Shown in pieces: positions 9,081-56,760 of a stretch of DNA of 64,000 nt. The notes below the pieces were generated by a model. The model saw nothing but the letters and a program-made list of their open reading frames with translations. It did no database searches and was not told the origin of the DNA. How positions within the stretch are numbered: position 1 is the stretch's first letter; each line of letters starts with the position of its first letter. The translations under genes were made by a program, and so were the position numbers. The DNA comes from an uncultured delta proteobacterium (GTDB taxonomy: Bacteria > Desulfobacterota > Binatia > HRBIN30 > BPIQ01), in the NCBI GenBank assembly GCA_963761335.1, contig CAVXGR010000005.1, positions 229,684-293,683 of the forward strand, given 5' to 3'.

Positions 9081-9085
9081 GAGGC

Positions 9086-14262: not shown

Positions 14263-14454
14263 CGATCCCCCTTTGGATGTGAGACCCTCGGATTCAACTG
14301 GACCCGGCCGCAGATTTCAACTGCGGCGCCACGGGACAGGCTACTTCTGCCCTTCGAGATCAGATGAGCGCGGCGGCAACAGCCGCAAAAGTTGCCTGTC
14401 CCCCACACCTTTCCTGCATTGTCCCCCGATCGCCTCCGTCTAGCATCGACCGTG

Positions 14455-27987: not shown

Positions 27988-30900
27988 TCACGACGCCTGC
28001 GCCGTGCCGCGACCCTTCCACAGCGCGAAGATGGCCGGATAGACGGTCAGCTCCAGCAGGAACGAGGTCGCCAGCCCGCCGACCATGGGCGCGGCGATGC
28101 GGCGCATGACGTCGGCGCCGGTGCCGGTGCTCCACATCACCGGCAGAAGGCCGATGAAGGTGGTGAGCACGGTCATCAGCTTCGGGCGGATGCGCCGCGC
28201 GGCGCCCTCGACGATGGCCTCGCGCAGGTCCGCCGGAGATCGCATCCGGCCCTCCTCCCGGGCGCGCTCGTAGGCGAGCTTCAGGTAGAGCAACATGACC
28301 ACGCCGGTCTCGGCGTCCAGACCGGCGAGGGCGATGAGCCCCACCCAGACGGCGACGCTGGTGTTGTAGCCGAGCAGGTAGAGGAGCCACACGGCGCCGA
28401 TCAGAGAGAACGGCACCGCCGCCAGGACGATCGCCACCTCGGTCGCCGAGCCGGTGTTGAAGTAGAGCAGCAGGCAGATGAGGAAGAGCGTGACCGGCAC
28501 CACCACCTTGAGGCGCTCCTTGGCGCGCTCGAAGTACTGGAACTGACCGGCCCACTCGAGGCGCAGGCCCGCAGGCAGGCGCACCTGGCGGGCGACCACC
28601 TCCTTGGCCTGCGCGACGTACTCCGCGATCGCCCGGTCCCCGGTGTCGACGAAGACGTAGCCCACCAGGCGGCCGCCCTCGCTGCGGATCATCGGTGGTC
28701 CGGTGGCGAACTCGATGTCGGCCACCTGCCGCAGGGGCACCTGCGCGCCTCCCGGAGTCGCCACCAGCACGCGCTCGAGGGCCGTCGGGTCGTCGCGGAA
28801 ATCGCGAGCGTAGGCGACGCTCACCGGGTAGCGCTCGCGCCCCTCGACGGTCTCGGACACCTGCATGCCGCCGATTGCCGTCTGCACCACGTCGTTGACG
28901 TCGGCGACGCGCAGCCCGTAGCGCGCCGCCGCGGCGCGATCGACTTTCACGTCGAGATAGAAGCCGCCGGTGGAGCGGTCGGCGAAGGCGCTGCGCGTGC
29001 CGGGGATCGCCGCAACCGCCTGCTCGATGCGCACCGCGGTGTCCTCGATGGTCGCCAGATCGTCGCCGAAGATCTTGATGCCGAGTGGGCTGCGAATGCC
29101 GGTGGAGAGCATCTCGGTGCGCGTCTGGATCGGCATCCACCAGATGTTCGGCATGCCGGGATAGCGCAGCGCGCGATCCATCTCGGAGATCAGGTCGTCC
29201 CAGGTCATTCCTTGCCGCCACTGCTCCCGCGGCTTGAGCATTACCACCGTCTCGACCATGCCGATCGGCGCCGGATCGGTGGGTGAGCTGGCGCGCCCCA
29301 TCTTGCCGAAGACGCTCATCACCTCGGGGAACTGCTTGAGCTTGCGGTCCATCGACTGCAGCAGCACGCTGGCCTCGCTCATCGACATTCCCGGCGGAGC
29401 GGTCGGCATGTAGAGGATGGCGCCCTCGTTGAGCGGCGGCATGAACTCGCTCTGGATCTGCAACGCCGCCGGAACGGTCAGGGCCACGGCGATCACCGCC
29501 AGGGCGATGACCGAGCGACGGAAGCGCACCACGAAACGGACCACCGGCACGTAGAGGGCGATGAGAATGCGGTTGAGCGGGTTGGCCTCCTCGCCGCGGA
29601 TGCGGCCGCGCACGAAGATGGCCGCCAGCGCCGGGGTGAGCGTGATCGCCAGCAGCGCCGCGAAGCCCATGGAGTAGGTCTTGGTGAAGGCCAGCGGCCG
29701 AAACAGGCGGCCCTCGACCGCCTGCAGGGTGAACACCGGCAGAAAGGAGACGGTGATCACCAGGAGCGAGAAGAAGATGCTCGGGCCCACCTCCTGCATG
29801 GCCCCGATCAGCACCTGCAGTCGGTCGCCGGGACGGCCGACCTCCTCCCAGACCTCGAGCTTCTTGTGGATGTTCTCGATGATGATGATCGAGGCGTCGA
29901 CCATGGCGCCGATGGCCACGGCGATGCCCCCGAGCGACATGATGTTGATGGTCAGCCCCTGGTAGAACATGGGCACGAAGGAGAGCAGCACGGCCAGTGG
30001 CAGGGTGACGATCGGCACCAGAGCGCTGCGCGCGTGCAGCAGGAAGACGAAGATCACCAGGCTGACCACCAGCATCTCCTCGATGAGCGTGTGGCGCAGG
30101 GTGTCGATCGAGGCCTCGATCAGCCCCGAGCGATCGTAGGTGGTGACCACCTTCACGCCTGCCGGCAGCGTCTTCTGCAGCTGCGCCAGGCGCTCCTTCA
30201 CCGCGCCGATGACGCGCAGGGCGTTCTCCCCGTAGCGCATGACGACGATGCCCCCGACCACCTCGCCGCGGCCGTCGAGATCGGCGAGGCCGCGGCGCGG
30301 CGCCGGACCGAGCTTCACCTCGCCGACGTCGCGGATGTAGACCGGGGCGCCCGTGGTCCCGACCTTCAGCGGCACGAGCTCGAGATCCTGCTTCTTCTTC
30401 ACGTAGCCGCGACCGCGCACCATGAACTCGTGCTCGGAGAGCTCCAACACCTGGCCGCCGACCTCCTGGTTCGACTCGCGCACCGCCTGCACCACCTCGC
30501 GCAGGGGGATGCCGAGGGCCACCAGCTTGTTCGGGTCGAGAAGGATCTGGTACTCCTTGCCGAAGCCGCCGACCGAGGCGACCTCGGCGACTCCGGGCAC
30601 GCTCTCGATGGCGTAGCGCAGGTTCCAGTCCTGCAGGCTGCGCAGCTCCTGGAGGTCGAGCGTGCCGCTCTCGTCGACGAGCGCGTACTCGAACACCCAG
30701 CCGACACCCGTGGCATCGGGGCCGAGGACCGGCGTCACCCCCTGCGGCAGCGCATTGGAGACCTCGTCGAGATACTCGAGGACTCGAGAGCGCGCCCAGT
30801 AGATGTCGGTTCCGTCCTCGAAGATGGCGTAGACGAAGGACATGCCGAACATCGACTGGCCGCGCACGTACTTGATGCGCGGCGCCGCCAGGAGGCTTGC

Positions 30901-31110
30901 GGAGATTGGATAGGTGATCTGGTCCTCGACGATGTCGGGGCTCTGTCCGGGCCACTCGGTGAAGACGATCACCTGCACGTCCGACAGGTCCGGTATGGCG
31001 TCGAGCGGCGATTGGCGCATCGACCACGCCCCCCATGCCGCCAGGGCGGCGACGAAGAGCAGCGTGAGAAGAGGGTGCCGCGCGCAGGCGGCGATGACCC
31101 GGCCGATCAT
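27988..31110 (-). CDS. heavy-metal efflux RND pump, CusA/CzcA family
   Basis: 1040 aa. N-terminus MIGRVIAACARHPLLT with conserved HME-RND blocks throughout. The 279-aa upstream extension of the raw ORF is Arg-rich junk, so the start was taken at the internal Met. Confidence 0.9.
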   Translation of the reverse strand: MIGRVIAACARHPLLTLLFVAALAAWGAWSMRQSPLDAIPDLSDVQVIVFTEWPGQSPDIVEDQITYPISASLLAAPRIKYVRGQSMFGMSFVYAIFEDGTDIYWARSRVLEYLDEVSNALPQGVTPVLGPDATGVGWVFEYALVDESGTLDLQELRSLQDWNLRYAIESVPGVAEVASVGGFGKEYQILLDPNKLVALGIPLREVVQAVRESNQEVGGQVLELSEHEFMVRGRGYVKKKQDLELVPLKVGTTGAPVYIRDVGEVKLGPAPRRGLADLDGRGEVVGGIVVMRYGENALRVIGAVKERLAQLQKTLPAGVKVVTTYDRSGLIEASIDTLRHTLIEEMLVVSLVIFVFLLHARSALVPIVTLPLAVLLSFVPMFYQGLTINIMSLGGIAVAIGAMVDASIIIIENIHKKLEVWEEVGRPGDRLQVLIGAMQEVGPSIFFSLLVITVSFLPVFTLQAVEGRLFRPLAFTKTYSMGFAALLAITLTPALAAIFVRGRIRGEEANPLNRILIALYVPVVRFVVRFRRSVIALAVIAVALTVPAALQIQSEFMPPLNEGAILYMPTAPPGMSMSEASVLLQSMDRKLKQFPEVMSVFGKMGRASSPTDPAPIGMVETVVMLKPREQWRQGMTWDDLISEMDRALRYPGMPNIWWMPIQTRTEMLSTGIRSPLGIKIFGDDLATIEDTAVRIEQAVAAIPGTRSAFADRSTGGFYLDVKVDRAAAARYGLRVADVNDVVQTAIGGMQVSETVEGRERYPVSVAYARDFRDDPTALERVLVATPGGAQVPLRQVADIEFATGPPMIRSEGGRLVGYVFVDTGDRAIAEYVAQAKEVVARQVRLPAGLRLEWAGQFQYFERAKERLKVVVPVTLFLICLLLYFNTGSATEVAIVLAAVPFSLIGAVWLLYLLGYNTSVAVWVGLIALAGLDAETGVVMLLYLKLAYERAREEGRMRSPADLREAIVEGAARRIRPKLMTVLTTFIGLLPVMWSTGTGADVMRRIAAPMVGGLATSFLLELTVYPAIFALWKGRGTAQAS

Positions 31111-32720
31111 TGCCAGTGCTCCATCGCCAGCTTGAGCCGGCTCTCGGCGGCGATCAGGAAGTTCCCGGAGGTGACGATGACATCGCCCTCCTGCAGTCCC
31201 GCGGTGATCTCCACCAGATTTTCGGACTTCTGTCCGATCTCGACGCGCTGCGGCTTGAGGCGTCCCTGGCCGAGATCGAGGAAGACGAAGCGGCGCGCAC
31301 CGGCATAGAGGATCGCCTGCTCCGGGACGGTCAGGCGCTCGCCGAGGTCGCGCTGCAGCTCGACGTTGGCGTACATGTCCGGCTTCAGACGGCGGCCGGG
31401 GTTGTCGAGCTCGACGCGTACGCGGCCGGTGCGCGTCGTGTCGTCGAGGTAGGGATAGACGAAGGCGACGCGCCCGTGCAGGACCTCGCCGGGAACATAC
31501 GCCAGGGTGACCACCGCTTCGTCTCCGGGATGCACCAGGGCCAGCTCCGACTCGTAGACCTCGGCCTCCACCCAGACGCGATCCAGGCCGGCGATGCGGA
31601 ACAGCTTCATGCCCGGCTCGACGGCGGCGCCCTCGACGACGTTCTTCTCGACCACGGCGCCGGACACCGGAGAGAGGATGGGAACATACTCGAGCGGCTT
31701 GCCGGAGCGCGCGATCCGATCGATCTGCGCCTCGCCCAGATCCCACAGGCGCAGTCGCTGCCGCGCCGCGCCCACCAGGTAGTCGGCGCGATCGGGTGCC
31801 GAGGTCTTCGCCGCGGCGCGCCGGCTGGCCAGCGCCGTGAGGAGCTCCTGCTGGGTGGCGTAGAGATCCGGGCTGTAGAGGGTGAACAGCGGCTCGCCCT
31901 TGTGCACCTCCTGGCCCGGAGTGTCGGCGTAGAGAGTGCCGATCCACCCCTGATACTTGACGGAGACGTCGGCGAGGCGGGTCTGGTCGTAAACCACCTT
32001 GCCGACGGCGCGGATGGTGATCGTCAGCGGTCGCCGCTGCACCGGCGCCGTGGTGACGCCGATGGTCTGCCGGCGCTGCGCATCCACCATGATGACTCCG
32101 GTCTCCGCCTCGCTGCGCGTCACCGGCACCAGATCCATCGAGCAGATCGGGCAGGTGCCCGGCTTCTGGCTGCGCACCGACGGATGCATCGAGCAGGTGT
32201 AGTAGGCGATCTCGTCACCGCCCGCGGCGGCGTTCTTTCCGTCGTCTGCCGACCCCGTTCCGGTCGATCCGGCGGTCAGCCCGCGACGGCCGACGGTGAT
32301 GCCGTAGTTGGCCTCCGCGGAAGTGCCGCCGGCGGCGATTGCGACCTGCACCGTCCAGCTGCCCCCCATCGGGAAGTCCAGAGCGGCGATGTAGCGCCCG
32401 CCGCCGAGCGGCGTCACCGGACCCTTGCCGCGCATCTCCGACATGGCGCCCATGGCCGGCATCAGGTAGCCCACCTGGATCTGGGCGTTCTCGACTGGAG
32501 CGCCGAGGGCGTCGGTGAGGCGCAAGCGCAGGGCATTTCCCTTTTCCGCGGGCGGATCGGGGCGGATCTCGGCGGCGATGGTGAAGTCCCCCGCGCGAGT
32601 CTCCACGGTGTTGCCGGGGGGGCGGTCGCAGGAAAGTGGCGTCGCCACCAGGGTGAGCATCGACATGAAGCGCGCCAGCGTCGAAAGGCGCGTGAGCGCA
32701 ATTGACGTGAACATCTTCAT
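31107..32720 (-). CDS. efflux RND periplasmic adaptor (membrane-fusion protein), CusB-like, with N-terminal heavy-metal-binding domain
   Basis: YYTCSMHPSVRSQKPGTCPICSMDLVPV heavy-metal-binding motif. Adaptor beta-barrel and lipoyl regions. ATGA overlap with the pump gene. Confidence 0.85.
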   Translation of the reverse strand: MKMFTSIALTRLSTLARFMSMLTLVATPLSCDRPPGNTVETRAGDFTIAAEIRPDPPAEKGNALRLRLTDALGAPVENAQIQVGYLMPAMGAMSEMRGKGPVTPLGGGRYIAALDFPMGGSWTVQVAIAAGGTSAEANYGITVGRRGLTAGSTGTGSADDGKNAAAGGDEIAYYTCSMHPSVRSQKPGTCPICSMDLVPVTRSEAETGVIMVDAQRRQTIGVTTAPVQRRPLTITIRAVGKVVYDQTRLADVSVKYQGWIGTLYADTPGQEVHKGEPLFTLYSPDLYATQQELLTALASRRAAAKTSAPDRADYLVGAARQRLRLWDLGEAQIDRIARSGKPLEYVPILSPVSGAVVEKNVVEGAAVEPGMKLFRIAGLDRVWVEAEVYESELALVHPGDEAVVTLAYVPGEVLHGRVAFVYPYLDDTTRTGRVRVELDNPGRRLKPDMYANVELQRDLGERLTVPEQAILYAGARRFVFLDLGQGRLKPQRVEIGQKSENLVEITAGLQEGDVIVTSGNFLIAAESRLKLAMEHWQ

Positions 32721-34357
32721 CGCGGTTCTCCGTGGTCGGACTGCTGGTGGGTTTCCGCCGTTGTCGGAACGGCGGGGGCGAACGCCGTGCCGGGAAGGCC
32801 GCCGAGGAGGCGGGTGAGCTCGGCCAGACGCCGGTGGAAGTCGGCGAGCGCCTCTTCGTAGCTCAGCTGCACGGCGCGCTGGTTGCGCTCCGCGTCGATG
32901 AGGGCGAGGAAGCTGTTGCCGCCGCTCTCAAATCCGGCGCGCGCCGCCTGCACCTGATCGCGGGCGGCGGGCAGCAGGCGGCCGAGGTAGAGGTCGACGA
33001 TGTGGTGCATCTCCAGCAATCGCGCCGCCGTTTGCTCGACGTCGGAGCGGACGTCGTCAATGAGGCGCTGGCGCTCGCTCTCTGCCTGCTGCAGCTTGGC
33101 GCGCGCCTCGGCTTCGGCGGCGTCGAGACGCCCGCGCCAGATCGGCAGGTTGACAGAGGCGCCAATCATCCAGCGGTGCTCCTCGTCGTTCCACATCGAG
33201 TTGTATGAGCTGGTGAGGCCGAAATCCGGATAGCGCTCCAGCCCGGCCAGCTCCACGGCGGCGCGGCGGCCGCGGACATCGGCGGCGGCCATCGCCAGCT
33301 CCGGTCGCCGTTCGACGGCGAGATCGGCGAGGCGATCGACATCGGTGTGGGCCATCTGCAGCAGCGGGCTCTCGGTGGGCGGCGGCAGCATCTTTGGCGG
33401 CGGCGGCAGCGGCGCCGCATAAGATCGGTGCAGCAGCGTGTTGATGCGGGCGACGAGCACGTCGCGGTCGGTTGCCAGGGTCACCTTGCGGTGCTCCAGG
33501 TGCGCCAGCTCGACCTCGGCCGCCAGCGGCTCCTGCTGCGACAGACGTCCGGCGGCGTACTGGTCGGTGGCGGCGCGCTTGAGCGCGGCGAGCAGGCGGA
33601 CGTGCTCGTCGTTGATCTCGTCGGCGCGGTCGAGAAGGTAGTAATCGTAGAAGAGAAAGGTCGCCGCCAGAGCCGTCTCCAGGCGCAGCGAGTCGTACGC
33701 CTGCCGGCTCGATTCCGCCTCGGCGAGGGCCGCCTCGCCGCGCAGCCGCAGCTTTCCCGGCCAGGGGAGCTTCTGTGAGAGCTCGATCTGCTGGCCGTAG
33801 TCGACGCTGCTCGAGCCGATGCTCAGGGGCGCCAAGCCGTAGGCGAACATCGGATCGTCGAGCGCCGTGGCTTGCGGGTAGCGCGCTACGGTGGCGGTCC
33901 AGGCGCTGCGCAGCGCCGCCAGGCTCGGGTTGCGGCGCAGCACGGCGCGCCGCAGCTCGTCGACGTCGAGCACGGCTTCGCCCTGAAAGAGCGGCGCGTC
34001 ACTGAACGCGGCGCCCCGCCGCGTAGTGAGGAGGCGGGACGCCTCCTCTACAGTGGACGCGGCGTCCCGCCGCGTGGTGAGGAGGCGGGACGCCTCCTCT
34101 ACAGTAGACGCGGCGTCCCGCCGCGTGGTGAGGAGGCGGGACGCCTCCTCTACAGTGGACGCGGCGTCCCGCCGCGTGGTGGGGAGGTGGGACGCCTCCT
34201 CTACAGTGGACGCGGCGTCTCGCCGCGTGGTGGGGAGGCGGGACGCCTCCTCTACTTTGGGCCGCGGCCCGGAGCAGCCGGAACCACCGGCGGCGATGAT
34301 CAGCATCGAGCTCCAGAGCACGCGAGCGATAGGTCGTCGCATGTGCAGTACTCCCAC
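32717..34357 (-). CDS. TolC-family outer-membrane efflux lipoprotein (CusC/CzcC-like)
   Basis: Lipobox (AAGGSGCSG) and paired outer-membrane-factor repeats. ATGA overlap with the adaptor gene. Confidence 0.8.
   Translation of the reverse strand: MGVLHMRRPIARVLWSSMLIIAAGGSGCSGPRPKVEEASRLPTTRRDAASTVEEASHLPTTRRDAASTVEEASRLLTTRRDAASTVEEASRLLTTRRDAASTVEEASRLLTTRRGAAFSDAPLFQGEAVLDVDELRRAVLRRNPSLAALRSAWTATVARYPQATALDDPMFAYGLAPLSIGSSSVDYGQQIELSQKLPWPGKLRLRGEAALAEAESSRQAYDSLRLETALAATFLFYDYYLLDRADEINDEHVRLLAALKRAATDQYAAGRLSQQEPLAAEVELAHLEHRKVTLATDRDVLVARINTLLHRSYAAPLPPPPKMLPPPTESPLLQMAHTDVDRLADLAVERRPELAMAAADVRGRRAAVELAGLERYPDFGLTSSYNSMWNDEEHRWMIGASVNLPIWRGRLDAAEAEARAKLQQAESERQRLIDDVRSDVEQTAARLLEMHHIVDLYLGRLLPAARDQVQAARAGFESGGNSFLALIDAERNQRAVQLSYEEALADFHRRLAELTRLLGGLPGTAFAPAVPTTAETHQQSDHGEPR
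34015..34265. repeat. in-frame tandem repeat, 51 bp x about 5, encoding VEEASRL(P/L)TTRRDAAST in the N-terminal linker of the outer-membrane factor
   Basis: Each DNA unit carries two GC-rich hairpins (GAGGAGGCgggacGCCTCCTC; GGACGCgGCGTCC). Confidence 0.8.
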
Positions 34358-35599: not shown

Positions 35600-36010
35600 C
35601 ACAAGTCAGCCGCTACTTCGAAAATCTGCTGGGTGAAGGTCTGGCGGAGCCCCGGCGCTTGGGGTGGAGATTATCGCCCCGGAGGGGCGCGGGCATGTAG
35701 CCCCGGGTGCCAACCCGGGGACCGCGTCCCGATTGCCCGGATCTGCGCCCCGGAGGGGCGCAGGCGTAGGGGCCGCGTGAATCACGTCGATGAGCTTTCC
35801 ACGCACCCAGCGGTGATCATCGGCGTACAGGCGCGACATCGACGAAATTTTGCCCGCGCCCCTGGCGGGGCGCCTATGACGGACCGTGCACTTTTCCCCG
35901 GGTTTCACCCGGGGCTACACGCCACTGCCCCTCCGGGGCGAACTTCGCCGAGGCCGGAACCCCCAAATCTCTTCCCGGGTCAGAACCCCGGCCTCATTTT
36001 CATCGTCTGC
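35600..36010. repeat. MITE-like repeat family B (roughly 400 bp, full-length copy)
   Basis: Related copies at 58409-58625 (5' part, above 90% identity) and 56040-56710 (reverse orientation with an internal duplication of about 205 bp). Imperfect terminal inverted repeats of about 70 bp starting GAAAAT and ending CGCCCCGGAGGGGCG. Fragments also lie inside 12420-12640. Confidence 0.7.
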
Positions 36011-36105
36011 TGGCGAGCCGCAAGGCAAGGCTCATGACGCACTGCTTCGAAAGTGTCGTGGGTGGGCCATCCGAGTGGCGTGGGGTCGTGGTCGCAAGCG
36101 CGGAG

Positions 36106-36851: not shown

Positions 36852-39800
36852 TCAGACAACCGGCTCCGCGGAAGCGGGAGCCGTCGGCGCGCCGTGCGGC
36901 AGGTGCCAACCGCGCCAGACGAAGTAGATGGCGGGGTAGACGACCAGCTCCATGACGAACGAGGTGACGACGCCGCCGACCATGGGAACGGCGATGCGCT
37001 TCATGACGTCGGCGCCGGTGCCGTGGCTCCAGAGAATCGGCAGCAGGCCGGCGAGAATGACGGAGACGGTCATCGCCTTCGGGCGTACGCGCTGCACGGC
37101 GCCGTGGTAGATCGCCTCGCGCAGGTCGCCGAGGGTGCGCAGCATGCCCTTGCTCTGCCACTCATCGTGGGCGACGTTGAGATAGAGCAGCATGACCACG
37201 CCGGTCTCGGCGTCGAGGCCGGCGAGGGCGATCATCCCCACCCACACCGCAATGCTCATGTTGTAGCCGAGGAACCAGATCAGCCAGACGGCGCCGACCA
37301 GGCTGAAGGGCACGGCGAGCAGGACGATGAAGGTCTCGAGCAGGCTCTGGGTGTTCAGATAGATGATCAGCACGATGATCAGCAGGGTGATCGGCAGGAT
37401 CACCAGCAGCCGCTGCTGGGCTCGCTGCATGTACTCGTACTGGCCGGACCAGGTGAGCGCGTAGCCGACCGGCAGAGTGATCTGGCCCTGGGCTTTCGCC
37501 TCGGCCACCGCCTTCTGGGCTCGCTCGACGTAGGTGCCGACGTCGATGCCGCGGATGTCGATGTAGATCCAGGTGTTCGGCCGGCTGTTCTCGCTCTTGA
37601 TGCCCGGAGCTCCCTTGGCGATCTCCATGTGGACGAGCTGCCCGAGGGGAATGTGCTGTCCCATGGGCGTCGGCACCAGGATGTTGTCGAGCTCCTCCAG
37701 GTTGGAGCGCAGCTCGCGCGGGTAGCGCAGGTTGATCGGATAGCGCTCCAGGCCCTCGACCGTGGTGGCCACGTTCATGCCCCCGATGGCGCTGGCGATG
37801 ACGTCCTGCACGTCGCCGAGGGTCAGACCGTAGCGGCCGATCTCCTCGCGGTCGATGGTGAAGTTGACGTAGTTGCCGCCGGCGACGCGCTCGGCGTAGG
37901 CGCTCAGGGTGTTCGGTACGCGCCGCATCACGGCTTCGACCTCCTCGCCGACGCGCTGCAGCGTCGGCAGGTCGGGGCCGGAGATCTTGATGCCCACCGG
38001 GGTCTTGATGCCGGTGGAAAGCATGTCGATGCGCGTCTTGATCGGCATCGTCCAGGCGTTGGTCACCCCGGGGAACTGGACCGCCGCATTGAGGGCGTCG
38101 ACCAGCTCGTCCGGCGTGCGGCGGCGGTGCGCGATCACCTGCCCGCCGGCGTCGGTGATGTCGACCGCCGGCCAGGTGTCCTCGTCGTTCAGCATCACCG
38201 TCGTCTCGATCATGCTCAGCGGCGCCGGGTCGGTGGCGGTGTCGGCGCGGCCGATCTTGCCGAAGACGTGATGCACCTCGGGGAAGCGCTTGATGATCCG
38301 GTCCGTCTGCTGCAACAGCTCGCGCGCCTTGGTGATGGAGATGCCCGGCAGGGTCGTTGGCATGTACAGGAAGTCGCCCTCGTAGAGAGGCGGCATGAAC
38401 TCCGACCCCAGCCGGCTGTAGGGCCACCAGGTGGCCGCTACGGTGAGCGCCGCGGCGCCGATGATGCCCCAGCACAGGGCGCGGTGGCGCAGGATGAACT
38501 CGATCACCGGATGGTACACGGCGATGAGCAGACGGTTCAGCGGATTGCGGTGCTCCGGCACGATGCGGCCGCGGACGAAGTAGCCCATGAGCACCGGGGC
38601 CAGGGTGATCGACAGGAAAGCGGCAGCGGCCATGGAGTACGTCTTGGTGAAGGCCAGCGGCTTGAAGAGGCGCCCCTCCTGCGCCTGCAGGGTGAACACC
38701 GGAACGAAGCTCACGGTGATCACCAGCAGGGAGTAGAAGAGCGTCGGGCCGACCTCGATGGAGGCGTCGCGGATGATCTCCCAGTGCGGCTTGCGGCCGG
38801 CGTCGCGCTCGACGTGCTTGTGGGCATTCTCGACCATGATGATGACCGCGTCGACCATCGCCCCGATGGCGATGGCGATGCCGCCGAGGCTCATGATGTT
38901 GGCGCCGATGCCCTGCGCGTACATGACGATGAAGGCCATCAGCACCGCCATTGGCAGGGTGACGATCGCCACCAAGGCGCTGCGAAAGTGGAAGAGGAAG
39001 AGGACGCAGACCACCGACACCGCCAGCGACTCCTCCAGCAGCTTCTCGCGCAGGGTGTGGATGGAGCGATCGATGAGCGAGGAGCGGTCGTAGGCGACGT
39101 GGATCTGCACGTCGGGCGGCAGGCCCGCCTTCAGCTCCGCCAGCTTCGCCTTGACGCGACTGATGACGTCGCGGGCGTTGGCGCCGTAGCGCACCACGAT
39201 GATGCCCCCGACCGTCTCCCCGGTGCCGTTCCACTCGGCGATGCCGCGCCGCATCTCCGGGCCGATGGACACCGTGCCGAGGTCGCGCAGCAGGATGGGT
39301 GTGCCGTCGGCGCGGGCGCCCACCGCCGCCTCCTCGAGCTCGCGCGGGTCGGTGATGTAGCCCTTGACGCGCAGGATGTACTCGGTCTCCGACATCTCCA
39401 TGACGCGGCCGCCGACCTCGCCATTGGATCGCTGAATCGCCTGCCGCACCTTGCCCAGCGGGATGTCATAGGCGCGCAGCTTCTCGGGATCGACGGTGAC
39501 CTGATACTGCTTGACGAAGCCGCCCACGCTGGCGACCTCGGAGACGCCCTCGGTCGCGGTGAGCTCGTACTTCAGGTACCAGTCCTGGATGCTGCGCAGC
39601 TGCTGGAGGTCGCGGCTGGGGCTGGTGAGGCTGTATATGAAGGCCCAGCCGACGCCGGTGGCATCGGGCCCGAGCGTCGGCGTCACCCCGCGCGGCAGCT
39701 GCCCCTGGAGCTGGCTCAGATACTCGAGCACCCGGCTGCGCGCCCAGTAGAGGTCGGTGCCGTCCTCGAAGATCACGTAGACGAAGGAGAAGTTGAAGAA

Positions 39801-40058
39801 GCTGTAGCCGCGCACCACCTTGGCGTAGGGCACCGACAGCATCTTGGTGGTGATCGGGTAGGTGATCTGGTCCTCGATGATGCGCGGTGCCTGGCCGGGA
39901 TACTCGGTGAAGACGATCACCTGGACATCGGACAGATCGGGGATGGCGTCGAGCGGCATGCGCGGGAGCACGTAGACGCCACCGAGGACGATGAACAGCG
40001 CCAGCAGGAGAACGATGAACTTGTTCTCCAGCGAGAAGCGGATGATGCGGGCGATCAT
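36852..40058 (-). CDS. heavy-metal efflux RND pump, CusA/CzcA family (second copy)
   Basis: 1068 aa. About 60% identity to the 27988-31110 protein by eye (MIARIIRFSLENKFIVLLL.. versus MIGRVIAACARHPLLTLLF..). Confidence 0.9.
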   Translation of the reverse strand: MIARIIRFSLENKFIVLLLALFIVLGGVYVLPRMPLDAIPDLSDVQVIVFTEYPGQAPRIIEDQITYPITTKMLSVPYAKVVRGYSFFNFSFVYVIFEDGTDLYWARSRVLEYLSQLQGQLPRGVTPTLGPDATGVGWAFIYSLTSPSRDLQQLRSIQDWYLKYELTATEGVSEVASVGGFVKQYQVTVDPEKLRAYDIPLGKVRQAIQRSNGEVGGRVMEMSETEYILRVKGYITDPRELEEAAVGARADGTPILLRDLGTVSIGPEMRRGIAEWNGTGETVGGIIVVRYGANARDVISRVKAKLAELKAGLPPDVQIHVAYDRSSLIDRSIHTLREKLLEESLAVSVVCVLFLFHFRSALVAIVTLPMAVLMAFIVMYAQGIGANIMSLGGIAIAIGAMVDAVIIMVENAHKHVERDAGRKPHWEIIRDASIEVGPTLFYSLLVITVSFVPVFTLQAQEGRLFKPLAFTKTYSMAAAAFLSITLAPVLMGYFVRGRIVPEHRNPLNRLLIAVYHPVIEFILRHRALCWGIIGAAALTVAATWWPYSRLGSEFMPPLYEGDFLYMPTTLPGISITKARELLQQTDRIIKRFPEVHHVFGKIGRADTATDPAPLSMIETTVMLNDEDTWPAVDITDAGGQVIAHRRRTPDELVDALNAAVQFPGVTNAWTMPIKTRIDMLSTGIKTPVGIKISGPDLPTLQRVGEEVEAVMRRVPNTLSAYAERVAGGNYVNFTIDREEIGRYGLTLGDVQDVIASAIGGMNVATTVEGLERYPINLRYPRELRSNLEELDNILVPTPMGQHIPLGQLVHMEIAKGAPGIKSENSRPNTWIYIDIRGIDVGTYVERAQKAVAEAKAQGQITLPVGYALTWSGQYEYMQRAQQRLLVILPITLLIIVLIIYLNTQSLLETFIVLLAVPFSLVGAVWLIWFLGYNMSIAVWVGMIALAGLDAETGVVMLLYLNVAHDEWQSKGMLRTLGDLREAIYHGAVQRVRPKAMTVSVILAGLLPILWSHGTGADVMKRIAVPMVGGVVTSFVMELVVYPAIYFVWRGWHLPHGAPTAPASAEPVV

Positions 40059-40063
40059 CGCGC

Positions 40064-41845
40064 CTACTCCCGGCCACCCGCCGCCGGCGTCTTCTCGACC
40101 TGCGACTCCGGCACCGGGATGAGCGACATGCCGCAGATCGGGCACTTGCCCGGCCCGGGGCGGTGCACGGACGAGTGCTCCGGCATCGGGCAGGTCCAGT
40201 AGGCGATCTTCGGCTTCTCGACGTGTCCGCCGCGCTTACGGACCGGCACCAGCTGCATGCCGCAGATCGGGCACCTGCCCGGCTTGTCGTAGAGAATGTC
40301 GGAGTGCTCCGGCATCGGGCACACGTAGAAGAGCTCCCCCTCGCCGGGCGGAGGCGCTGCGGCGCCGCTCTGGCGGGTGGCGTCCTTGATCGGCTGGGCG
40401 CCGCCGACGGTTCCGGGCTCCATGAACTTCACCGCGGCCTCCCGCAGGCGACTCTCGGAATCGAGGAGGAACTGCCCGGAGATCACCACCGTCTCGCCCG
40501 GCGAGAGGCCGGAGAGCACCTGCAGGTAATTGTTGTCGTCGCGCGCCCCGATCTTCAGCTCGCGGGGCTCGAAGTGGCCGGGGCGTGGCATGACGAAGGC
40601 GACGGCGCGCATGCCGGTGCGGATGACCGCCATGTCCGGAACCATGGTTGCCTCGGCGGCGACCTGGCTCACCAGCGACACGGTGGCATACATGCCGGGC
40701 TTCAGCTCGTATCCGGGATTGTGGAACTCCATGCGCACCGGCACAGTGCGCGTTTTGGCTTCGAGATACGGGTAGACGTAGGTAACGCGCCCGCGGAAGG
40801 TCCGGCCCGGCAGGTAGGTGAGCGTCATCAGAGCTTCCTGTCCGAGCTTCACGTAGGGGGCGTCGGACTCGTACACCTGGGCGATCACCCAGACGTTGGA
40901 GATGTCGGCGAGCTTGAAGACGTCGGTGCCGGCGGCGATCTTCTGTCCCTCGACGACGTTCTTCTGGGTGACGATGCCGGTGAAGGGCGCGCGGATGGAG
41001 AGCGTCTTCGTCACCTCGCCGCTCTTCTTCAGCTGCGCGATCTGCTCGGGGGAGATGTCGAAGAACTCCAGCCGCGTGCGCGCGTCGCGCACCAGCGCTT
41101 GCGAGTCGATGCGCGATCGGGGAATCAGTGGCAGGTCCGCCGTCTGCTCGTTGCGCAGCGCCGCGACGTATTCCTGCTGGGCCGAGAACAGCTCCGGCGA
41201 GTACAGGTCGAACAGCGGATCGCCCTTGTGCACCTGCTGGCCGGTCTGATCCACGTAGAGCTTCTCGATCCAGCCGCCCACCTTGGTGGCGACCGCCGCC
41301 AGCGTGGTCTCGTCATAGGCGACGTTGCCGAGGGTGCGGATGCTCTTGTTGAGTGGCGCGCGGATCACCTTGTCGACGCGCACGCCCATGTTCTGCTCGA
41401 TCACCGGGTCAATGCGGATGGTTCCGGCAGAGGCTTCGTCGGCGTACACGGGGACGAGGTCCATCCCCATCGAGTCCTTGCCCGGCTCGCTGTGGGTCTC
41501 CCCGGGAATCATCGACGATTTCCAGTAGAGGGTCTTGCGCTCCGGGGCTGCGGCTTCCGTCCGTTTGATCGGTGGTGACGCCGCCGGCTGGCTGAGACCC
41601 ATGGCGGCGGCGCGGTCCGCGGCCATGGGTTGCAGCTTCATGCCGCACTTCGGGCAGTCGCCGGGATGGTCCTGGACCACCTCCGGGTGCATGCCGCAGG
41701 TGTACCAGGTCCTGGCGCTCTGCGGCGCCGCGCTCGCGTCGACGACGCTCTCCTGGTGCTGCCGCTGCATCCACAGCCAGGCGCTGCCGGCGCCGGCGGC
41801 GAAGACGATACCGGTGAGGGCGATGAGGGAAATGGCGCGCTTCAT
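40064..41845 (-). CDS. efflux RND periplasmic adaptor, CusB-like, with three heavy-metal-binding-domain motifs
   Basis: N-terminal YTCGMHPEV..CPKCGMKL. Two C-terminal copies YVCPMPEHS..CPICGMQL and YWTCPMPEHS..CPICGMSL. Start taken at the internal Met MKRAISL. Confidence 0.85.
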   Translation of the reverse strand: MKRAISLIALTGIVFAAGAGSAWLWMQRQHQESVVDASAAPQSARTWYTCGMHPEVVQDHPGDCPKCGMKLQPMAADRAAAMGLSQPAASPPIKRTEAAAPERKTLYWKSSMIPGETHSEPGKDSMGMDLVPVYADEASAGTIRIDPVIEQNMGVRVDKVIRAPLNKSIRTLGNVAYDETTLAAVATKVGGWIEKLYVDQTGQQVHKGDPLFDLYSPELFSAQQEYVAALRNEQTADLPLIPRSRIDSQALVRDARTRLEFFDISPEQIAQLKKSGEVTKTLSIRAPFTGIVTQKNVVEGQKIAAGTDVFKLADISNVWVIAQVYESDAPYVKLGQEALMTLTYLPGRTFRGRVTYVYPYLEAKTRTVPVRMEFHNPGYELKPGMYATVSLVSQVAAEATMVPDMAVIRTGMRAVAFVMPRPGHFEPRELKIGARDDNNYLQVLSGLSPGETVVISGQFLLDSESRLREAAVKFMEPGTVGGAQPIKDATRQSGAAAPPPGEGELFYVCPMPEHSDILYDKPGRCPICGMQLVPVRKRGGHVEKPKIAYWTCPMPEHSSVHRPGPGKCPICGMSLIPVPESQVEKTPAAGGRE

Positions 41846-43305
41846 GATCTGTTGCTCCCATTCGTCGATTCGGTTGGGGCGGGGGCCGTCGCCGGCTCGA
41901 GGTCGGCGCGCCGCGGCACCTGCACGCCGATCAGCTGGCGCAGGTCGGCGAAGCGCTGCTCCAGCTCCGCCAGGGCGCGGTGGTAGGAGAGCGTGAGGTT
42001 GAGCCACTTGCGCCAGTTCTCGATCAGCGCTGTGAACTCGATGGCATTTGCCTGGTAAGCGGAGTTGGAGGCCTCGATCGCCTGCCAGGCGCGCGGCACG
42101 ATGAGATCGCGGAACAGAAGCGCCTGGCGGTACTGCGTGTCGATCTTTACCAGCGTGTCCTGGAGCTGGAGGAAGATCTGGTTGCGCAGCTCGTCGTACT
42201 CCTCGACCGAGGCGAGCGTCTGCGCGTTGCCCTCGAGGACGCGGGCCCGCAGTCGCTTCCACCAGATCGGCAGGTTCAGGCCCAGCGATAGATTCCAGGC
42301 GTCGTCGCCGGTGCGCACCGGGCTGATGCCCGAGCTGGAGATGGCCGTGTACGTCGTGCCCAGGGTCAGATCCGGATAGTAGTTGAGATGCGCCAGATCG
42401 ACGGCCTCGAGGTCGCGCCGGATCTGGGCCCGCAGTCGCTCCAGGCGCGGGTTCGAGGTGACGGCCCGGTCGATTGCCTGCGGCAGCTTCCACTCCACGG
42501 CGGCCAGCTCGAAGGGGCGGGGCGGGGGCAGCGGCGCGTCCACCGGTCGATTCATCAGGCTGTCGAGCTGCGCCTGGGCCGTGGTGCGTTGCTGCTCGAG
42601 GGTGATGAGGTCGTTGGCCAGCCCGTAGAGCTCGACCTCGGCGCGCAACACGTCCTGCTGCGTCGCCTGACCCGTGCGGTAGCGGGCGGCGGCGACCTCG
42701 CGGATCTGGCCGAGGAGCCTCTCACTCTCGCGGGTGATCTGGATGGAGACCTCGGCGAGGTAGTAGCTGTAGTAGGCCCTCTGCACCTGACCGACGGTCG
42801 AGACCCGCGCCTCGTCAATGCCGTCCAGAGCCATGCGCACCGCCTGCTCGGCGACGCGCCCGCGGGCCGCCAGCTTGCCGGGGAAGGGCAGCTTCTGCGA
42901 CACGCCCACGGAGCCGGCCATCATTCCGGCGGCGGTCTCGATCATGTCGCCGGTGGGCGGGATCAGGGTCAGCATCGGATCGTCGAGCGAGGTCATCTGC
43001 GGGACCTGGTATCCGAGAACCTGGGCCTGGCGGACGGCGCGGCGAATCGCGGGATTCTCGGCGAGGGCGACGCGGACGTAGTCGTCCAGCCCGGCGCCCG
43101 AAGGCAGGGGCTCGACAGGCGGAGGCGCCCCGGCGTGCAGGCTCTGCGCCGCCGTATCGACGACGGCCTGATCGTCTTCGACGGCCGGCTGCAGCGGCGC
43201 CGCTTCGGCGGCGACGCGTCGCTGCAGTTTGCCGTCTACCGCGGCGCAGCCGGTGACCGCCAGCAGCGCCAGCAGGGCGATGAAATGTATCGGTTGTGGC
43301 TTCAC
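41842..43305 (-). CDS. TolC-family outer-membrane efflux lipoprotein (CusC/CzcC-like, second copy)
   Basis: Lipobox LLAVTGCAA. Outer-membrane-factor repeats. 4-nt overlap with the adaptor gene. Confidence 0.8.
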   Translation of the reverse strand: MKPQPIHFIALLALLAVTGCAAVDGKLQRRVAAEAAPLQPAVEDDQAVVDTAAQSLHAGAPPPVEPLPSGAGLDDYVRVALAENPAIRRAVRQAQVLGYQVPQMTSLDDPMLTLIPPTGDMIETAAGMMAGSVGVSQKLPFPGKLAARGRVAEQAVRMALDGIDEARVSTVGQVQRAYYSYYLAEVSIQITRESERLLGQIREVAAARYRTGQATQQDVLRAEVELYGLANDLITLEQQRTTAQAQLDSLMNRPVDAPLPPPRPFELAAVEWKLPQAIDRAVTSNPRLERLRAQIRRDLEAVDLAHLNYYPDLTLGTTYTAISSSGISPVRTGDDAWNLSLGLNLPIWWKRLRARVLEGNAQTLASVEEYDELRNQIFLQLQDTLVKIDTQYRQALLFRDLIVPRAWQAIEASNSAYQANAIEFTALIENWRKWLNLTLSYHRALAELEQRFADLRQLIGVQVPRRADLEPATAPAPTESTNGSNRS

Positions 43306-52096: not shown

Positions 52097-52122
52097 TTAC
52101 AAAACAAACGTTTGTTCGTCAA
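52097..52122 (-). promoter_or_regulatory. tetR promoter/operator: TTGACG -35 box immediately followed by the perfect palindrome AACAAACGTTTGTT
   Basis: Palindrome at 52103-52116, 15 nt upstream of the tetR ATG (52088). Same sequence and architecture as 14455-14474. Confidence 0.55.
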
Positions 52123-52125
52123 GCC

Positions 52126-52322
52126 GCCAAGGCGAACCGCAGAGGCGCCGAGGGTGCAGAGAAAGGACACCGCCACGATCCGTTACCGGCGTCCCTTCGC
52201 CTGGGGCGTTGCCCCAGGCTGTTGAATTGCGCCCATTCGGGGCTGGAGTGGTCCGAATCTCCCTCGGCGTCCTTGGCGAGCTTCTCCTCTGCGCCCTCGG
52301 CGCCTTGGCGGTTCGCCTTGGC
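52126..52322. repeat. 36-bp imperfect inverted repeat (33/36 matching) flanking a structured segment of about 125 bp in the tetR-dxs intergenic region
   Basis: GCCAAGGCGAACCGCAGAGGCGCCGAGGGTGCAGAG versus CTCTGCGCCCTCGGCGCCTTGGCGGTTCGCCTTGGC. Internal hairpin CCTGGGGcgttgCCCCAGG. Confidence 0.5.
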
Positions 52323-52411
52323 GGCTCTTTGCACCGGTTCTGCACGATCTCTCTGCTGGAATTCCTCGCCGCGGCTCTGCAGTCGTCAAACTCGTATGCT
52401 CTTCTGGGGGC

Positions 52412-54241
52412 ATGAAAGATCAGCTCTCCGCCGCGACCCGTCTGGCTCCGGATGTCTCGCCGCCGCTGCCGGCTCTCGAATATCTGCGGGGGCCGGAGGA
52501 CGTCAGGCGGCTGTCGCCGGCGCAGCTGCAGAGGCTCGCCGAGGAGATGCGCGAGTTTCTCATCGACGCGGTCACCCGCATCGGCGGGCACCTCGGGGCC
52601 GGGCTCGGCGTCGTCGAGCTGACCATCGCGCTGTTCGCCGAGCTCGATCTGAACGATGGCGACAAGCTGGTGTGGGACGTCGGCCACCAGTGCTATCCGC
52701 ACAAGCTGCTCACCGGGCGGGCTCGCGGTTTCGAGTCGCTGCGCCGCCGCGGCGGCATGTCGGGCTTTCCGGATCCGCGCGAGTCGAGCTGGGACACGGT
52801 GAAGACCGGGCACGGGGGCACCAGCATCTCCACCGCCGCCGGCTTCGCCCTCGCCTGGAAGCACGCCGGAGCAGACCCGGAACGGCGCGCCGTGGCGGTG
52901 ATCGGCGACGGCGCCCTGCAGGAAGGCAGCGCCTACGAGGCGCTGCATCACGCCGGCAGCATTGCCGACCTGCCGCTGATCGTCGTCCTCAACGACAACG
53001 GCATGTCGATCAGCCCCAGCGCCGGGGCTCTTCCCGGCCTTCTCGATCGGCAGGGCCGCTCGGGCGGCGACAACTTCTTCGAGCAGCTCGGCTTCCGCTA
53101 CTGCGGTCCGTTCGACGGTCACGACATCGAGGCCGTGCGCCGGGCGCTGCGCACCGCCCGCTGCGAGCCGGGGCCGGTGGTGCTGCACCTGCTGACTCGC
53201 AAGGGACGCGGCTACCGCGACGGCGAGCCCGAGCACACCTGCTATCACGCCGTCTCCGCCGCGGGCGGTGGCGCTGTCGAGTATCCGCAGCAGGGCGGGC
53301 CGAGCTTCACTGCGGCGTTTGCCGACGCCGCCATCGCCATGGCGGAGGAGGATCCGCGCCTGGTGGTGGTCACCGCGGCGATGCTCGAAGGGACCGGGCT
53401 GGTGAAGTTCCAGCGGCGCTTCCCGGATCGCTGCCACGACGTCGGCATGGCGGAGCAGCACGCCGTGGCGCTGGCGGCCGGCTTGGCGCTCGCCGGCCGG
53501 CGGCCGATCTGCGCCATCTACTCGACCTTCCTGCAGCGCGCCTACGACCAGGTGTTCCAGGAGGTGGCGCTGCAGCGCGCCCGGGTTCTCTTCTGTCTCG
53601 ACCGCGGCGGCCTGGTGGGCTCCGACGGCGCCACTCACAACGGCGTCTTCGACGTCGGCTATCTCCGCTGCCTGCCGAACCTGGCGCTGATGGCGCCGCG
53701 CGACATCGGCGAGCTGGCGCAGATGATGCGCCTCGCCTGGGAATGGGATGGACCGGTGGCCATCCGTTTCCCGCGCGGCAGCGGCGCGCGGCCGGAGTGG
53801 CAGCTGCCGCATGCGCCGCTCACCTTCGGCCGCGCCGAGCGCGTCGCCCCGGGGGAGGACGGGTGCATCCTCGCCTACGGGGCGATGACCTATGCGGCCC
53901 TGGAAGTACGGCGGCGCCTGCTCGCCGAGAGCGGCGTGCGGCTGGCCGTGGTCAACGCGCGCTTCGCCAAGCCTCTCGACGAGGACCTGATCGCCGAGGA
54001 GCTACAGCGGCAGCCGGTGGTCTTCACCCTCGAGGATCACGCCCTCAGCTGCGGCTTCGGCGCCGCCGTCGCCGAGCTGGCGCACACCCGCCTGTCGGGG
54101 CAGATGGACAGCGGCCGCCTCTGCCTCCTCGGTATTCCCGATCGCTTCTTCGACCACGCCGAGCGCGCCGAGCAGCTCGAGGAGGCCGAGCTTGGTGTCG
54201 ATCAGATCAAGGGGCGGGTTGTTAGGTTGTTAGGTTGTTAG
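52412..54241 (+). CDS. dxs: 1-deoxy-D-xylulose-5-phosphate synthase
   Basis: TPP-binding GDGALQEGSAYEAL plus transketolase-like pyrimidine and C-terminal domains. The last 8 codons and the stop are encoded by the octamer repeat array. Confidence 0.9.
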   Translation: MKDQLSAATRLAPDVSPPLPALEYLRGPEDVRRLSPAQLQRLAEEMREFLIDAVTRIGGHLGAGLGVVELTIALFAELDLNDGDKLVWDVGHQCYPHKLLTGRARGFESLRRRGGMSGFPDPRESSWDTVKTGHGGTSISTAAGFALAWKHAGADPERRAVAVIGDGALQEGSAYEALHHAGSIADLPLIVVLNDNGMSISPSAGALPGLLDRQGRSGGDNFFEQLGFRYCGPFDGHDIEAVRRALRTARCEPGPVVLHLLTRKGRGYRDGEPEHTCYHAVSAAGGGAVEYPQQGGPSFTAAFADAAIAMAEEDPRLVVVTAAMLEGTGLVKFQRRFPDRCHDVGMAEQHAVALAAGLALAGRRPICAIYSTFLQRAYDQVFQEVALQRARVLFCLDRGGLVGSDGATHNGVFDVGYLRCLPNLALMAPRDIGELAQMMRLAWEWDGPVAIRFPRGSGARPEWQLPHAPLTFGRAERVAPGEDGCILAYGAMTYAALEVRRRLLAESGVRLAVVNARFAKPLDEDLIAEELQRQPVVFTLEDHALSCGFGAAVAELAHTRLSGQMDSGRLCLLGIPDRFFDHAERAEQLEEAELGVDQIKGRVVRLLGC

Positions 54242-54460
54242 GTTGTTAGGTTGTTAGGTTGTTAGGTTGTTAGGTTGTTAGGTTGTTAGGTTGTTAGGTT
54301 GTTAGGTTGTTAGGTTGTTAGGTTGTTAGGTTGTTAGGTTGTTAGGTTGTTAGGTTGTTAGGTTGTTAGGTTGTTAGGTTGTTAGGTTGTCAGCTCAGTC
54401 GTTGAAGAGGGTTCATCCGTACCTAACAACCAACAACTCAACAACTTAACAACCTGCCCT
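54225..54460. repeat. tandem array of about 22 copies of the octamer GGTTGTTA, followed after a spacer by about 4 inverted copies (TAACAACC-like)
   Basis: Read directly from the sequence. The dxs stop codon TAG lies in the third unit. The 3' inverted copies can pair with the array to form a hairpin. Confidence 0.9.
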
Positions 54461-56014: not shown

Positions 56015-56039
56015 AAGGGGACAGTGCGTCATGAGCCTG

Positions 56040-56710: not shown

Positions 56711-56760
56711 TCGGGTGAGAGCAACAATCTCGCGTGCAAAAGTTGCCTGTCCCCAGCCCC

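Follow-up and report, generated by a model that had tools for sequence, protein, structure and literature searches.

Terminal inverted repeats and target-site duplications characterise the classical bacterial miniature inverted-repeat transposable elements (MITEs), such as Correia/NEMIS, ERIC and RUP. Derivatives of IS200/IS605 elements that are non-autonomous, among them the PATEs of Haloquadratum, contain palindromes and depend for mobility on an HUH enzyme supplied in trans; in IS200/IS605, the hairpins used for recognition are no more than a few tens of nucleotides away from the two ends and share one orientation. The IS110/IS1111 elements that target repetitive extragenic palindromes (REPs), such as IS621 and ISPpu9/10, are autonomous, 1.2-1.5 kb long, encode a DEDD recombinase and form a circular junction. 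REPs and REPINs are reportedly mobilised by RAYT, a view ascribed to Bertels and Rainey (in 2011), and to our knowledge bacterial interspersed mosaic elements (BIMEs) do not occur as discrete fixed-terminus units that insert at a specific nucleotide of another palindrome. REPs themselves are described as GC-rich extragenic hairpins with a 5′ GTAG tag that RAYTs mobilise (Nunvar 2010, PMC2817692; Di Nocera 2013, PMC3733652), and it is by hairpins with this tag that the GTAG superfamily of REPs is recognised (Di Nocera et al. 2013, PMC3733652). The motif Acido-Lenti-1 is filed as a probable small RNA (sRNA) of Acidobacteria and Lentisphaerae (Weinberg 2010, PMC2864571; Rfam). Here we describe Family B, a dispersed repeat found in a 64,000-nt stretch of DNA (hereafter the window) from an uncultured delta proteobacterium of the class Binatia (contig CAVXGR010000005.1). 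Family B is recently active and is a relative of the bacterial REP/REPIN repeats, not a classical MITE.

We consider it very probable that Family B is a mobile REP-type non-autonomous element; the fuller description, a non-autonomous repeat of the REP/REPIN/BIME kind with a unit of ~430 bp that is mobilised in trans, is probably right as well, with appreciable room for doubt. The element is of a known kind, yet it differs in its size, in ends that lie outside the hairpins, in its two-hairpin module and in its visible target. Like REPs and REPINs, it has short GC-rich hairpins with GTAG at one foot, of several stem families in one genome; these form inverted pairs (arms 83% complementary and paired in the predicted fold), lie mostly 3′ of genes, and flank Y1 transposase genes in other genomes. 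However, its unit is ~430 bp, with a spacer of 176 nt between the arms that is longer than usual for REP inverted pairs, as against ~20-100 nt for REP dimers. It also has a lineage-specific core, ends of its own outside the hairpins and a visible, defined insertion site; each of its REPs is accompanied by a second small hairpin, and a cognate RAYT was not found in the window or related contigs. As in enterobacterial BIMEs, REPs in alternating orientation form mosaics with conserved linker motifs, are amplified in tandem and lie between gene ends. With IS200/IS605 derivatives Family B shares the lack of terminal inverted repeats and target-site duplications, and insertion 3′ of a short specific sequence, whereas its ends are not detectably structured and its hairpin modules are inverted and lie deeper inside.

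Copies, ends and target of Family B

The repeat occupies four loci in the window, as a preliminary description of this DNA had noticed, and the family is real and well beyond chance. Copies A and B are 90-94% identical over 281-360 nt (blastn E 1e-123 to 1e-139), with which a repeat scan agrees, and A and C are 91% identical across 224 nt. The loci are as follows.

35616-36044, + strand: copy A, full length, 429 bp; ends from comparing A, B, C and two copies on contig L105
56022-56687, − strand: copy B, full length with internal expansions, 666 bp
58407-58625, + strand: copy C, left half only, truncated within the core; abuts the stop codon (58627-58629) of the phosphatidylserine decarboxylase gene (psd)
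12429-12517, + strand: fragment D, part of the right arm (hairpin, REP, small hairpin), 79% identical to A over 91 nt

Additional copies lie on two other contigs, L105 and the one bearing open reading frame (ORF) P0121. Comparison of the junctions fixes the unit as CTTCGAAAATCT......GGCTCATGACGCACTG and shifts the borders first proposed: a full copy A had been placed at 35600-36010, a reverse-orientation copy B with an internal duplication at 56040-56710, and a 5′ half, copy C, at 58409-58625. A and B thus receive new coordinates and C a new start, and the fragments noticed inside 12420-12640 correspond to D. The duplication in B, estimated at about 205 bp, is present, but its unit is 195 bp; B is longer than A because this unit and a 47-bp unit are each doubled.

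56157-56555, − strand: 195-bp unit in two copies, 99% identical; the unit is the REP-to-REP interval (TRF, repeat scan)
56570-56665, − strand: 47-bp unit in two copies, containing the small hairpin (TRF)

All copies are positioned downstream of genes. Copy A lies between the stop of a PIN toxin gene (36106) and the start of a cytochrome c gene (35531), and copy B between convergent genes for a fatty-acid hydroxylase (stop 56014) and an amidase (stop 56761); A and C both separate genes of the same direction. Fragment D is followed by an array of three 38-bp units (12495-12605), both within a larger palindromic repeat cluster, 12337-12824. Gene content beside the copies differs at each locus (Pfam), which argues against a segmental duplication carrying identical flanking genes.

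The termini, CTTCGAAAATC... on the left and ...GACGCACTG on the right, are not complementary and are unrelated to each other. The terminal inverted repeats of about 70 bp that had been described do not exist as such, since the sole inverted repeat in a copy is a subterminal 46-nt pair, 83% complementary, which begins 59 nt from the left end and stops 103 nt short of the right end. Likewise, GAAAAT had been given as the start of both ends, whereas the right end reads ...GGCTCATGACGCACTG and the second GAAAAT lies ~43 nt inside it. A small hairpin, GAGCC-loop-GGCTC, is found 11 nt from the right end in all copies.

The sequence before the element is ...GCAAAAGTAGCCTG in B, ...GGCAAAGTAGCCTG in C and ...CGAAAAGGCGCCTG at the L105 dimer, each of which is the right arm of a second palindromic repeat, X, with the general form GGGGACAGGC-stem-loop-stem-GCCTGTCCCC. 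The X copies of the window and the flank of A, which lies outside any X, are listed here.

56688-56754, − strand: X_B, GGGGACAGGCAACTTTTGC-loop-GCAAAAGTAGCCTG; its last 5 nt, TCCCC (56017-56021, other strand), lie beyond copy B
58337-58406, + strand: X_C, with copy C inserted after ...GTAGCCTG (X motif search, junction comparison)
14333-14404, + strand: unoccupied X, GGGACAGGCTACTTCTGC...GCAAAAGTTGCCTGTCCCCC (X motif search; DNA fold z = -3.0)
36045-36068, + strand: right flank of A, CTTCGAAAGTGTCGTGGGTGGGCC, like the element's own left end and also present at the empty site of contig L106

The left flanks end in CCTG in B, C and L105, in CACTG at the dimer junction and in GCTA in A. The far flank begins with TCCCC in B and L105, so that removing the element restores a complete X at both. 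X_B, X_C and the L105 X have unrelated loops and are therefore independent copies of X. The insertion point is CCTG^TCCCC, without duplication: filled sites read CCTG-element-TCCCC as compared with the empty X, and at most the 3-nt CTG is common to the target and the right end, which also finishes in CTG. In L105 the element forms a head-to-tail dimer with the junction ...GCACTG followed by CTTCGAAAATC. A candidate 8-bp target duplication at copy A (CTTCGAAA) was rejected, since every copy of the element has that sequence as its left end, and the occurrence in the right flank of A pre-exists at the empty site of L106. At the otherwise empty X of L109 (6112-6189, corresponding to 14394-14412 of the window), an extra unrelated segment of ~66 nt lies 3 nt past CCTG^TCCCC; insertions or indels may be favoured at the end of X.

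Related contigs differ from the window at these sites. L106 and L109 are 91-98% identical to it and keep the order CusA-MazE-PIN-cytochrome c-OEP, with copy A absent; identity to the genome that lacks A is 91-94%, and no Family B copy occurs in their 12.5 kb. The empty site in L106 reads GGGACACCAAGTCCACTG directly followed by CTTCGAAAGTGTCGTGGG, the flank being preceded by CCACTG, and has 13 nt, CACTGCTTCGAAA, in common with the L105 dimer junction. The preliminary description had suggested looking for insertion polymorphism between strains; related genomes do differ in A, absent from L106, and in C, which sits where L108 has a gene. The proposal in the same description that copies mark the boundaries of accessory modules finds no support: the window genes are ordinary chromosomal ones and L106 keeps the MazE-PIN-cytochrome c-efflux order without the element. 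In the particular case of copy C, contig L108 (97-98% identical) has, between psd and the amidase gene, a gene that overlaps the psd stop (ATGA) and encodes an LGT-like membrane protein of 346 aa. When 58234-58625 of the window is compared with 4511-5646 of L108, the window has 386 nt (truncated C plus X_C) versus 1124 nt in L108, and the breakpoints have ATG.TCG.CCTG in common. The simplest reading of these sequences is a deletion that extends from the element core into the adjacent gene. Contig L107 (98.6% identical) has both B and C and ends exactly at the right end of B; L108 ends exactly at the left border of B, and a Logan contig identical to the window ends 13 nt inside A. Assemblers evidently break at the repeat.

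Copies also vary internally. Copy A has a single 195-bp unit, B has two and P0121 has five; the borders of this unit lie within REP hairpins. Of the 47/48-bp unit, A likewise has one and B two, and the two L105 copies have four and eight. Polymorphism extends to a second family of repeats, since a ~130-nt element of the 'family A' of the preliminary description (a GTAG hairpin doublet with its own flanks, 9082-9212) is precisely absent from the corresponding site of L109 (989-1000).

The arm module and its wider occurrence

Every arm of Family B contains the same 46-nt module, made of a small hairpin, about 8 nt, GTAG and then an 8-bp GC hairpin, CCCCGGGTnnnnACCCGGGG. Copy A opens with ~59 nt of left-end sequence, closes with ~103 nt of right-end sequence and has the following parts in between.

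35675-35720, + strand: left arm module (sequence, hairpin scan)
35675-35689, + strand: left small hairpin, CGCCCCGGAGGGGCG, followed by a 7-nt linker
35697-35700, + strand: left GTAG tag (sequence)
35701-35720, + strand: left REP hairpin, CCCCGGGTgccaACCCGGGG (sequence, hairpin scan)
35743-35769, + strand: second small hairpin, CTGCGCCCCGGAGGGGCGCAG, then gc and GTAG; a degenerate extra module (sequence, hairpin scan)
35770-35855, no strand assigned: lineage-specific non-coding core of 86 nt; the ORF crossing it matches only ORFs over sister copies
35856-35873, no strand assigned: hairpin GCGCCCCtggcGGGGCGC (hairpin scan)
35896-35941, − strand: right arm module, inverted, with REP hairpin CCCCGGGTttcACCCGGGG, CTAC, an 8-nt linker and small hairpin GCCCCTCCGGGGC (inverted-repeat scan)

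The palindrome CGCCCCGGAGGGGCG and the interior CCCCGGGT...ACCCGGGG hairpins were correctly recognised at the outset (sequence, hairpin scan). The distance between the starts of the left and right REP hairpins is 195 nt, the same as the tandem unit in B. The module folds as two hairpins in single-stranded DNA (z = -2.5 on the left and -3.4 on the right), and whole-element folds pair the two arms (z = -6.4 and -6.9).

That Family B is short, non-coding and dispersed, and that it behaves like mobile DNA, is borne out by its differing flanks, by copies on other contigs and by the precise absence of A from L106. A gene inside the element was considered and rejected: neither the 134-aa ORF of the + strand nor the 100-aa ORF of the − strand has a homologue among 5.8 billion proteins, and exhaustive phmmer searches return only ORFs over other copies (P0121, P0123) and two unrelated repetitive proteins. 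The core was likewise rejected as a relic of a RayT gene; a weak tblastn match, '...HKWVRGK' (E about 0.1), had raised the idea, while a profile of 120 RayT homologues was blank across the six-frame window and detects no RayT-like segment in the core. A group II intron or another Rfam family was rejected as well, for lack of any match; none to Intron_gpII or another intron occurs in the window at E <= 10. No sigma-70 promoter-like site was found in the element, and its intrinsic-terminator matches are weak. Patterns for 22 nt of the core and 26 nt of the left end have no match in GTDB representative genomes and JGI metagenomes.

In contrast to the core, the module is widespread. The module of copy C (58465-58510) scores 40 bits for Acido-Lenti-1 (RF01687), above the gathering threshold of 37 bits, and the L105 arm modules score 27.5-33.5 bits, under the threshold. 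Read on the opposite strand, the Acido-Lenti-1 motif has a GTAG tag 5′ of its hairpin, as REPs of the GTAG superfamily do; we found no paper that links Acido-Lenti-1 to REPs. The two-hairpin architecture and the conserved CUA and loop features of Acido-Lenti-1 are all seen in the arm module. Here, by contrast, the motif forms the inverted arms of a mobile repeat, occurs in many more phyla and lies beside Y1 transposase genes. Within the window, GTAG or CTAC adjoins 8 of 38 intergenic perfect hairpins, compared with 0.2 expected, and these belong to several stem families. Apart from Family B they include GTAG-AAGCGGCG... (the doublets of family A), GTAG-CCGGGGGT... and GTAG-CCGGTGGGT....

A scan of one genome per GTDB species places the exact hairpin GTAGCCCCGGGTGNNAACCCGGGG at at least 94 loci in at least seven phylum-level groups. 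They include Acidobacteriota (Terriglobia, Holophagales, Thermoanaerobaculia), Bacteroidota, Ignavibacteria, Verrucomicrobiota, Planctomycetota, Lentisphaerales and Hydrogenedentota, with one metagenome-assembled genome of Pseudomonadales. Among the matches listed, the hairpin is frequently multi-copy inside one genome and has a small hairpin upstream of GTAG at nearly all loci. Among the 102 module instances collected from other phyla, the stem of the small hairpin comes in 45 versions; the linker is most often 8 nt long, and the loops are GGA, GTA or GAA. At loci L002-L095, G:T mismatches in the small hairpin exceed A:C mismatches 9 to 1 on the GTAG strand, and because of this bias the data suggest that the strand that folds is opposite to the orientation of the Rfam model.

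The same hairpin also takes part in another composite element. Many of loci L004-L095 (Terriglobia, Ca. Versatilivorator, sponge-associated Acidobacteria) share a unit of at least 134 nt, ...CCATCCTTATAGAGCTGCGTAGCAGCGGCTCAGG-GTAG-hairpin-TCGTATGGGTTCCGCGCCAACCCAGCCGCGAATGCGGCGA, which is multi-copy, is kept across species and constitutes a different element on the same hairpin. In the window, a small separate element at 52122-52326, between divergent genes for a TetR regulator and DXP synthase, has 40-nt inverted repeats (93% complementary) that enclose an Acido-Lenti-1-like module (52200-52244) scoring 33.4 bits, below the threshold.

The 94 REP-selected loci listed contain exactly two RayT-type Y1 genes, and both lie beside the module. 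At L073 (Bacteroidales), a Y1 gene (Pfam Y1_Tnp, 1e-21) stands between inverted modules; at L036 (Verrucomicrobiales), a frameshifted Y1 gene (1e-16) adjoins a dimer of modules, and the two hairpins of this dimer match those of the window exactly. Spurious ORFs over the repeat aside, no neighbouring protein recurs in these 94 loci. Most homologues of the L073 protein are single-copy, and many carry the JGI name 'REP element-mobilizing transposase RayT'. Across seven RayT loci (five picked by protein alone, plus L073 and L036), where stem sequences differ, modules of the form small hairpin, 6-10 nt, GTAG occur at 3.3 per kb in the 450-nt flanks of the RayT gene versus 0.43 per kb elsewhere. The module lies beside a Y1 gene in other phyla at L073, L036 and L097. 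A further arrangement is seen at L099 (1700-3100, a low-GC genome), where the last ~75 nt of a RayT gene are tandemly repeated together with small-hairpin-GTAG modules 3′ of the intact gene, so that REP-type units there carry a fragment of the transposase gene.

Mobilisation and alternative explanations

The anatomy of Family B, its ends, target and empty sites, its presence or absence and copy-number variation, and the module-Y1 association in other genomes are directly established, and from them a probable route of spread can be outlined. Family B encodes nothing and would enter DNA directly 3′ of CTG, with no duplication or at most the shared CTG; its preferred site would be CCTG^TCCCC in the stem of palindrome X, where it could sit as a head-to-tail dimer. 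A RayT-like HUH Y1 transposase encoded elsewhere in the source genome would recognise the GTAG hairpins and move the element as single-stranded DNA. After insertion, slippage or unequal exchange between palindromic hairpins would generate the variation in 195-bp and 47/48-bp units, and the element could seed deletions of neighbouring DNA. Located 3′ of genes, its RNA or DNA hairpins may behave like those of other REPs and hold back 3′ exonucleases or serve as terminator or insulator. That a RayT/IS200-like HUH enzyme moves Family B in trans as single-stranded DNA is a tentative part of this outline, which we rate somewhat below an even chance. We infer it from the fixed, non-inverted ends, the lack of target duplication, the short specific target, the dimers, the empty sites and the GTAG hairpins that accompany Y1 genes elsewhere.

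Several observations weigh against mobilisation as a REP-type element. Neither a Y1 transposase nor any other recombinase is encoded in the window or in ~43 kb of related contigs, and Pfam and domain scans of the 64-kb window find no transposase or integrase domain among its genes. The enzyme proposed to move the element is accordingly a putative one. The terminal 70 nt show no significant structure relative to shuffled sequence (z = -0.3 to -0.6), and the REP hairpins lie 85-130 nt from the ends, farther than in IS200/IS605 elements. Only one module of the window reaches the RF01687 threshold, the other arms being below it or filtered out. For the source genome, the copies counted amount to the four loci of the window, which covers 64 kb of a 472,979-bp contig, and one on a 167,650-bp contig (P0121), which is probably from the same assembly. 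Copy A lies outside any X palindrome, and its 3′ flank CTTCGAAAGTGTCGTGGG resembles the element's left end; its left flank, GCCGCTA, is no exact match to CCACTG of the empty site, and its difference from L106 is compatible with either gain or precise loss.

The main rival to transposition by a RayT-like enzyme is a circular double-stranded intermediate inserted by conservative site-specific recombination, in which an IS110/IS1111-type DEDD recombinase with its bridge RNA, or a tyrosine recombinase, would recombine the joined ends (...GCACTG followed by CTTCGAAA...) with a short-core target. The 13-nt identity between the empty site of A and the L105 dimer junction fits this model, as do the dimer itself and the CTG at both junctions, which resembles a crossover core. 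Precise entry into a repeated palindrome with no or minimal duplication is also how REP-targeting IS110-family elements such as IS621 and ISPpu9/10 behave. Against it, the X targets and the junction have only (C/A)CTG in common, too little for a 13-nt core, and the conspicuous conserved parts of Family B are GTAG hairpins, which elsewhere accompany Y1 transposases. No window ORF encodes a DEDD recombinase or integrase, although a trans-acting copy could exist elsewhere, and the window has no DEDD gene or bridge-RNA match for Family B; we judge such a circle to be unlikely. Family B might instead be a passive BIME-like REP cluster that spreads and shrinks by homologous or illegitimate recombination, gene conversion and replication slippage, with no dedicated transposition. 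The 195-bp, 47/48-bp and 38-bp arrays do have unit borders in hairpins, several repeat families are intermingled in the intergenic regions, copy C is associated with a deletion, and AGCCGC occurs in the left flank of A as in that of B, a hint of copying with some flank. Yet the same two ends recur in five copies from two genomes, and A is cleanly absent at exactly those ends. At three loci with unrelated X loops, moreover, the same end stands at the same nucleotide of X, with the far flank completing the palindrome. Because three insertions hit the same nucleotide of unrelated X copies, a purely passive origin is inadequate, and we regard it as decidedly improbable.

The remaining explanations bear on what kind of sequence Family B is. 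It could be an RNA gene or cis-regulatory RNA, its copies being paralogous genes for the Rfam Acido-Lenti-1 sRNA: one module exceeds the Rfam gathering score, the small-hairpin stems vary while their pairing is kept, with the 9 to 1 excess of G:T over A:C on the GTAG strand, and the predicted whole-element folds are strong. That bias, however, favours the strand opposite to the Rfam model, and modules occur in both orientations inside one element. No promoter-like site is present and terminator-like matches are weak, copies vary in number, truncation and presence between strains, and elsewhere the modules flank transposase genes; little credence can be given to an RNA gene on these grounds. 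The MITE label of the preliminary description, implying descent by deletion from a DDE insertion sequence, with inverted termini and a target-site duplication, agrees with a small, non-coding, multi-copy element that has an internal inverted repeat, is of similar size to classical MITEs and is dispersed intergenically. It is the least credible of the explanations weighed here. Its ends show no inverted relationship; the one inverted repeat, 59 and 103 nt inward of them, is a REP module; and no duplication beyond the shared CTG exists (none >3 nt, and none in filled versus empty X sites). Returning to REP-type mobility, we offer a broader proposal with less than even confidence. Acido-Lenti-1 may be not an sRNA but a two-hairpin GTAG-tagged REP recognised by a clade of RayT-type Y1 transposases (Acidobacteriota, Bacteroidota, the PVC group and others). 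Family B may then represent an undescribed class of larger, cargo-carrying non-autonomous derivatives, with fixed ends, duplication-free insertion 3′ of CTG in the stem of a second palindromic repeat, head-to-tail dimers, and copy-number variation and gene loss between strains.

Neighbouring features and significance

Other repeats and duplications occur in the window. Between the DXP synthase and TetR genes, at 54217-54390, the octamer GGTTGTTA is repeated 21.8 times in a perfect array. Related octamer runs (GTGGCTCG, GTTATCGG, GTTGTCGG and CACCGGGT) make up the 42-nt inverted ends (12337-12378/12783-12824) of the cluster at 12337-12824 and also occur at 9864-9934. Two paralogous heavy-metal RND efflux operons, 27988-34357 and 36852-43305, are 71-84% identical at the DNA level and ~8.9 kb apart; each comprises a membrane-fusion protein with an HMBD domain, an RND pump and an OEP, and between them lie copy A, the toxin-antitoxin pair and the cytochrome c gene. 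Within ORF 32717-34357 (− strand), the coding sequence for the outer-membrane efflux lipoprotein contains, just past the lipobox, five tandem 51-bp units (34006-34255), all of them GTAG-type hairpin doublets, which encode the repeated peptide STVEEASRLLTTRRDAA; the L106 counterpart of this array has about two units.

If the proposed reading of the module is right, a curated Rfam 'sRNA' motif would be reassigned to the world of REPs and RAYTs, and GTAG-tagged REPs would extend to phyla that were not reported in the 2013 survey (Di Nocera 2013, PMC3733652). In practical terms, Family B breaks metagenome assemblies at its borders, gives rise to spurious ORF calls and is associated with the loss of a neighbouring gene in one strain. 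For this REP-based element the ends and the target are defined exactly, and both empty sites and polymorphisms between strains are on record, a combination rarely available for REP-type repeats. The way in which REP-type repeats spread is still argued, and Family B makes the mechanism of their mobilisation directly testable.

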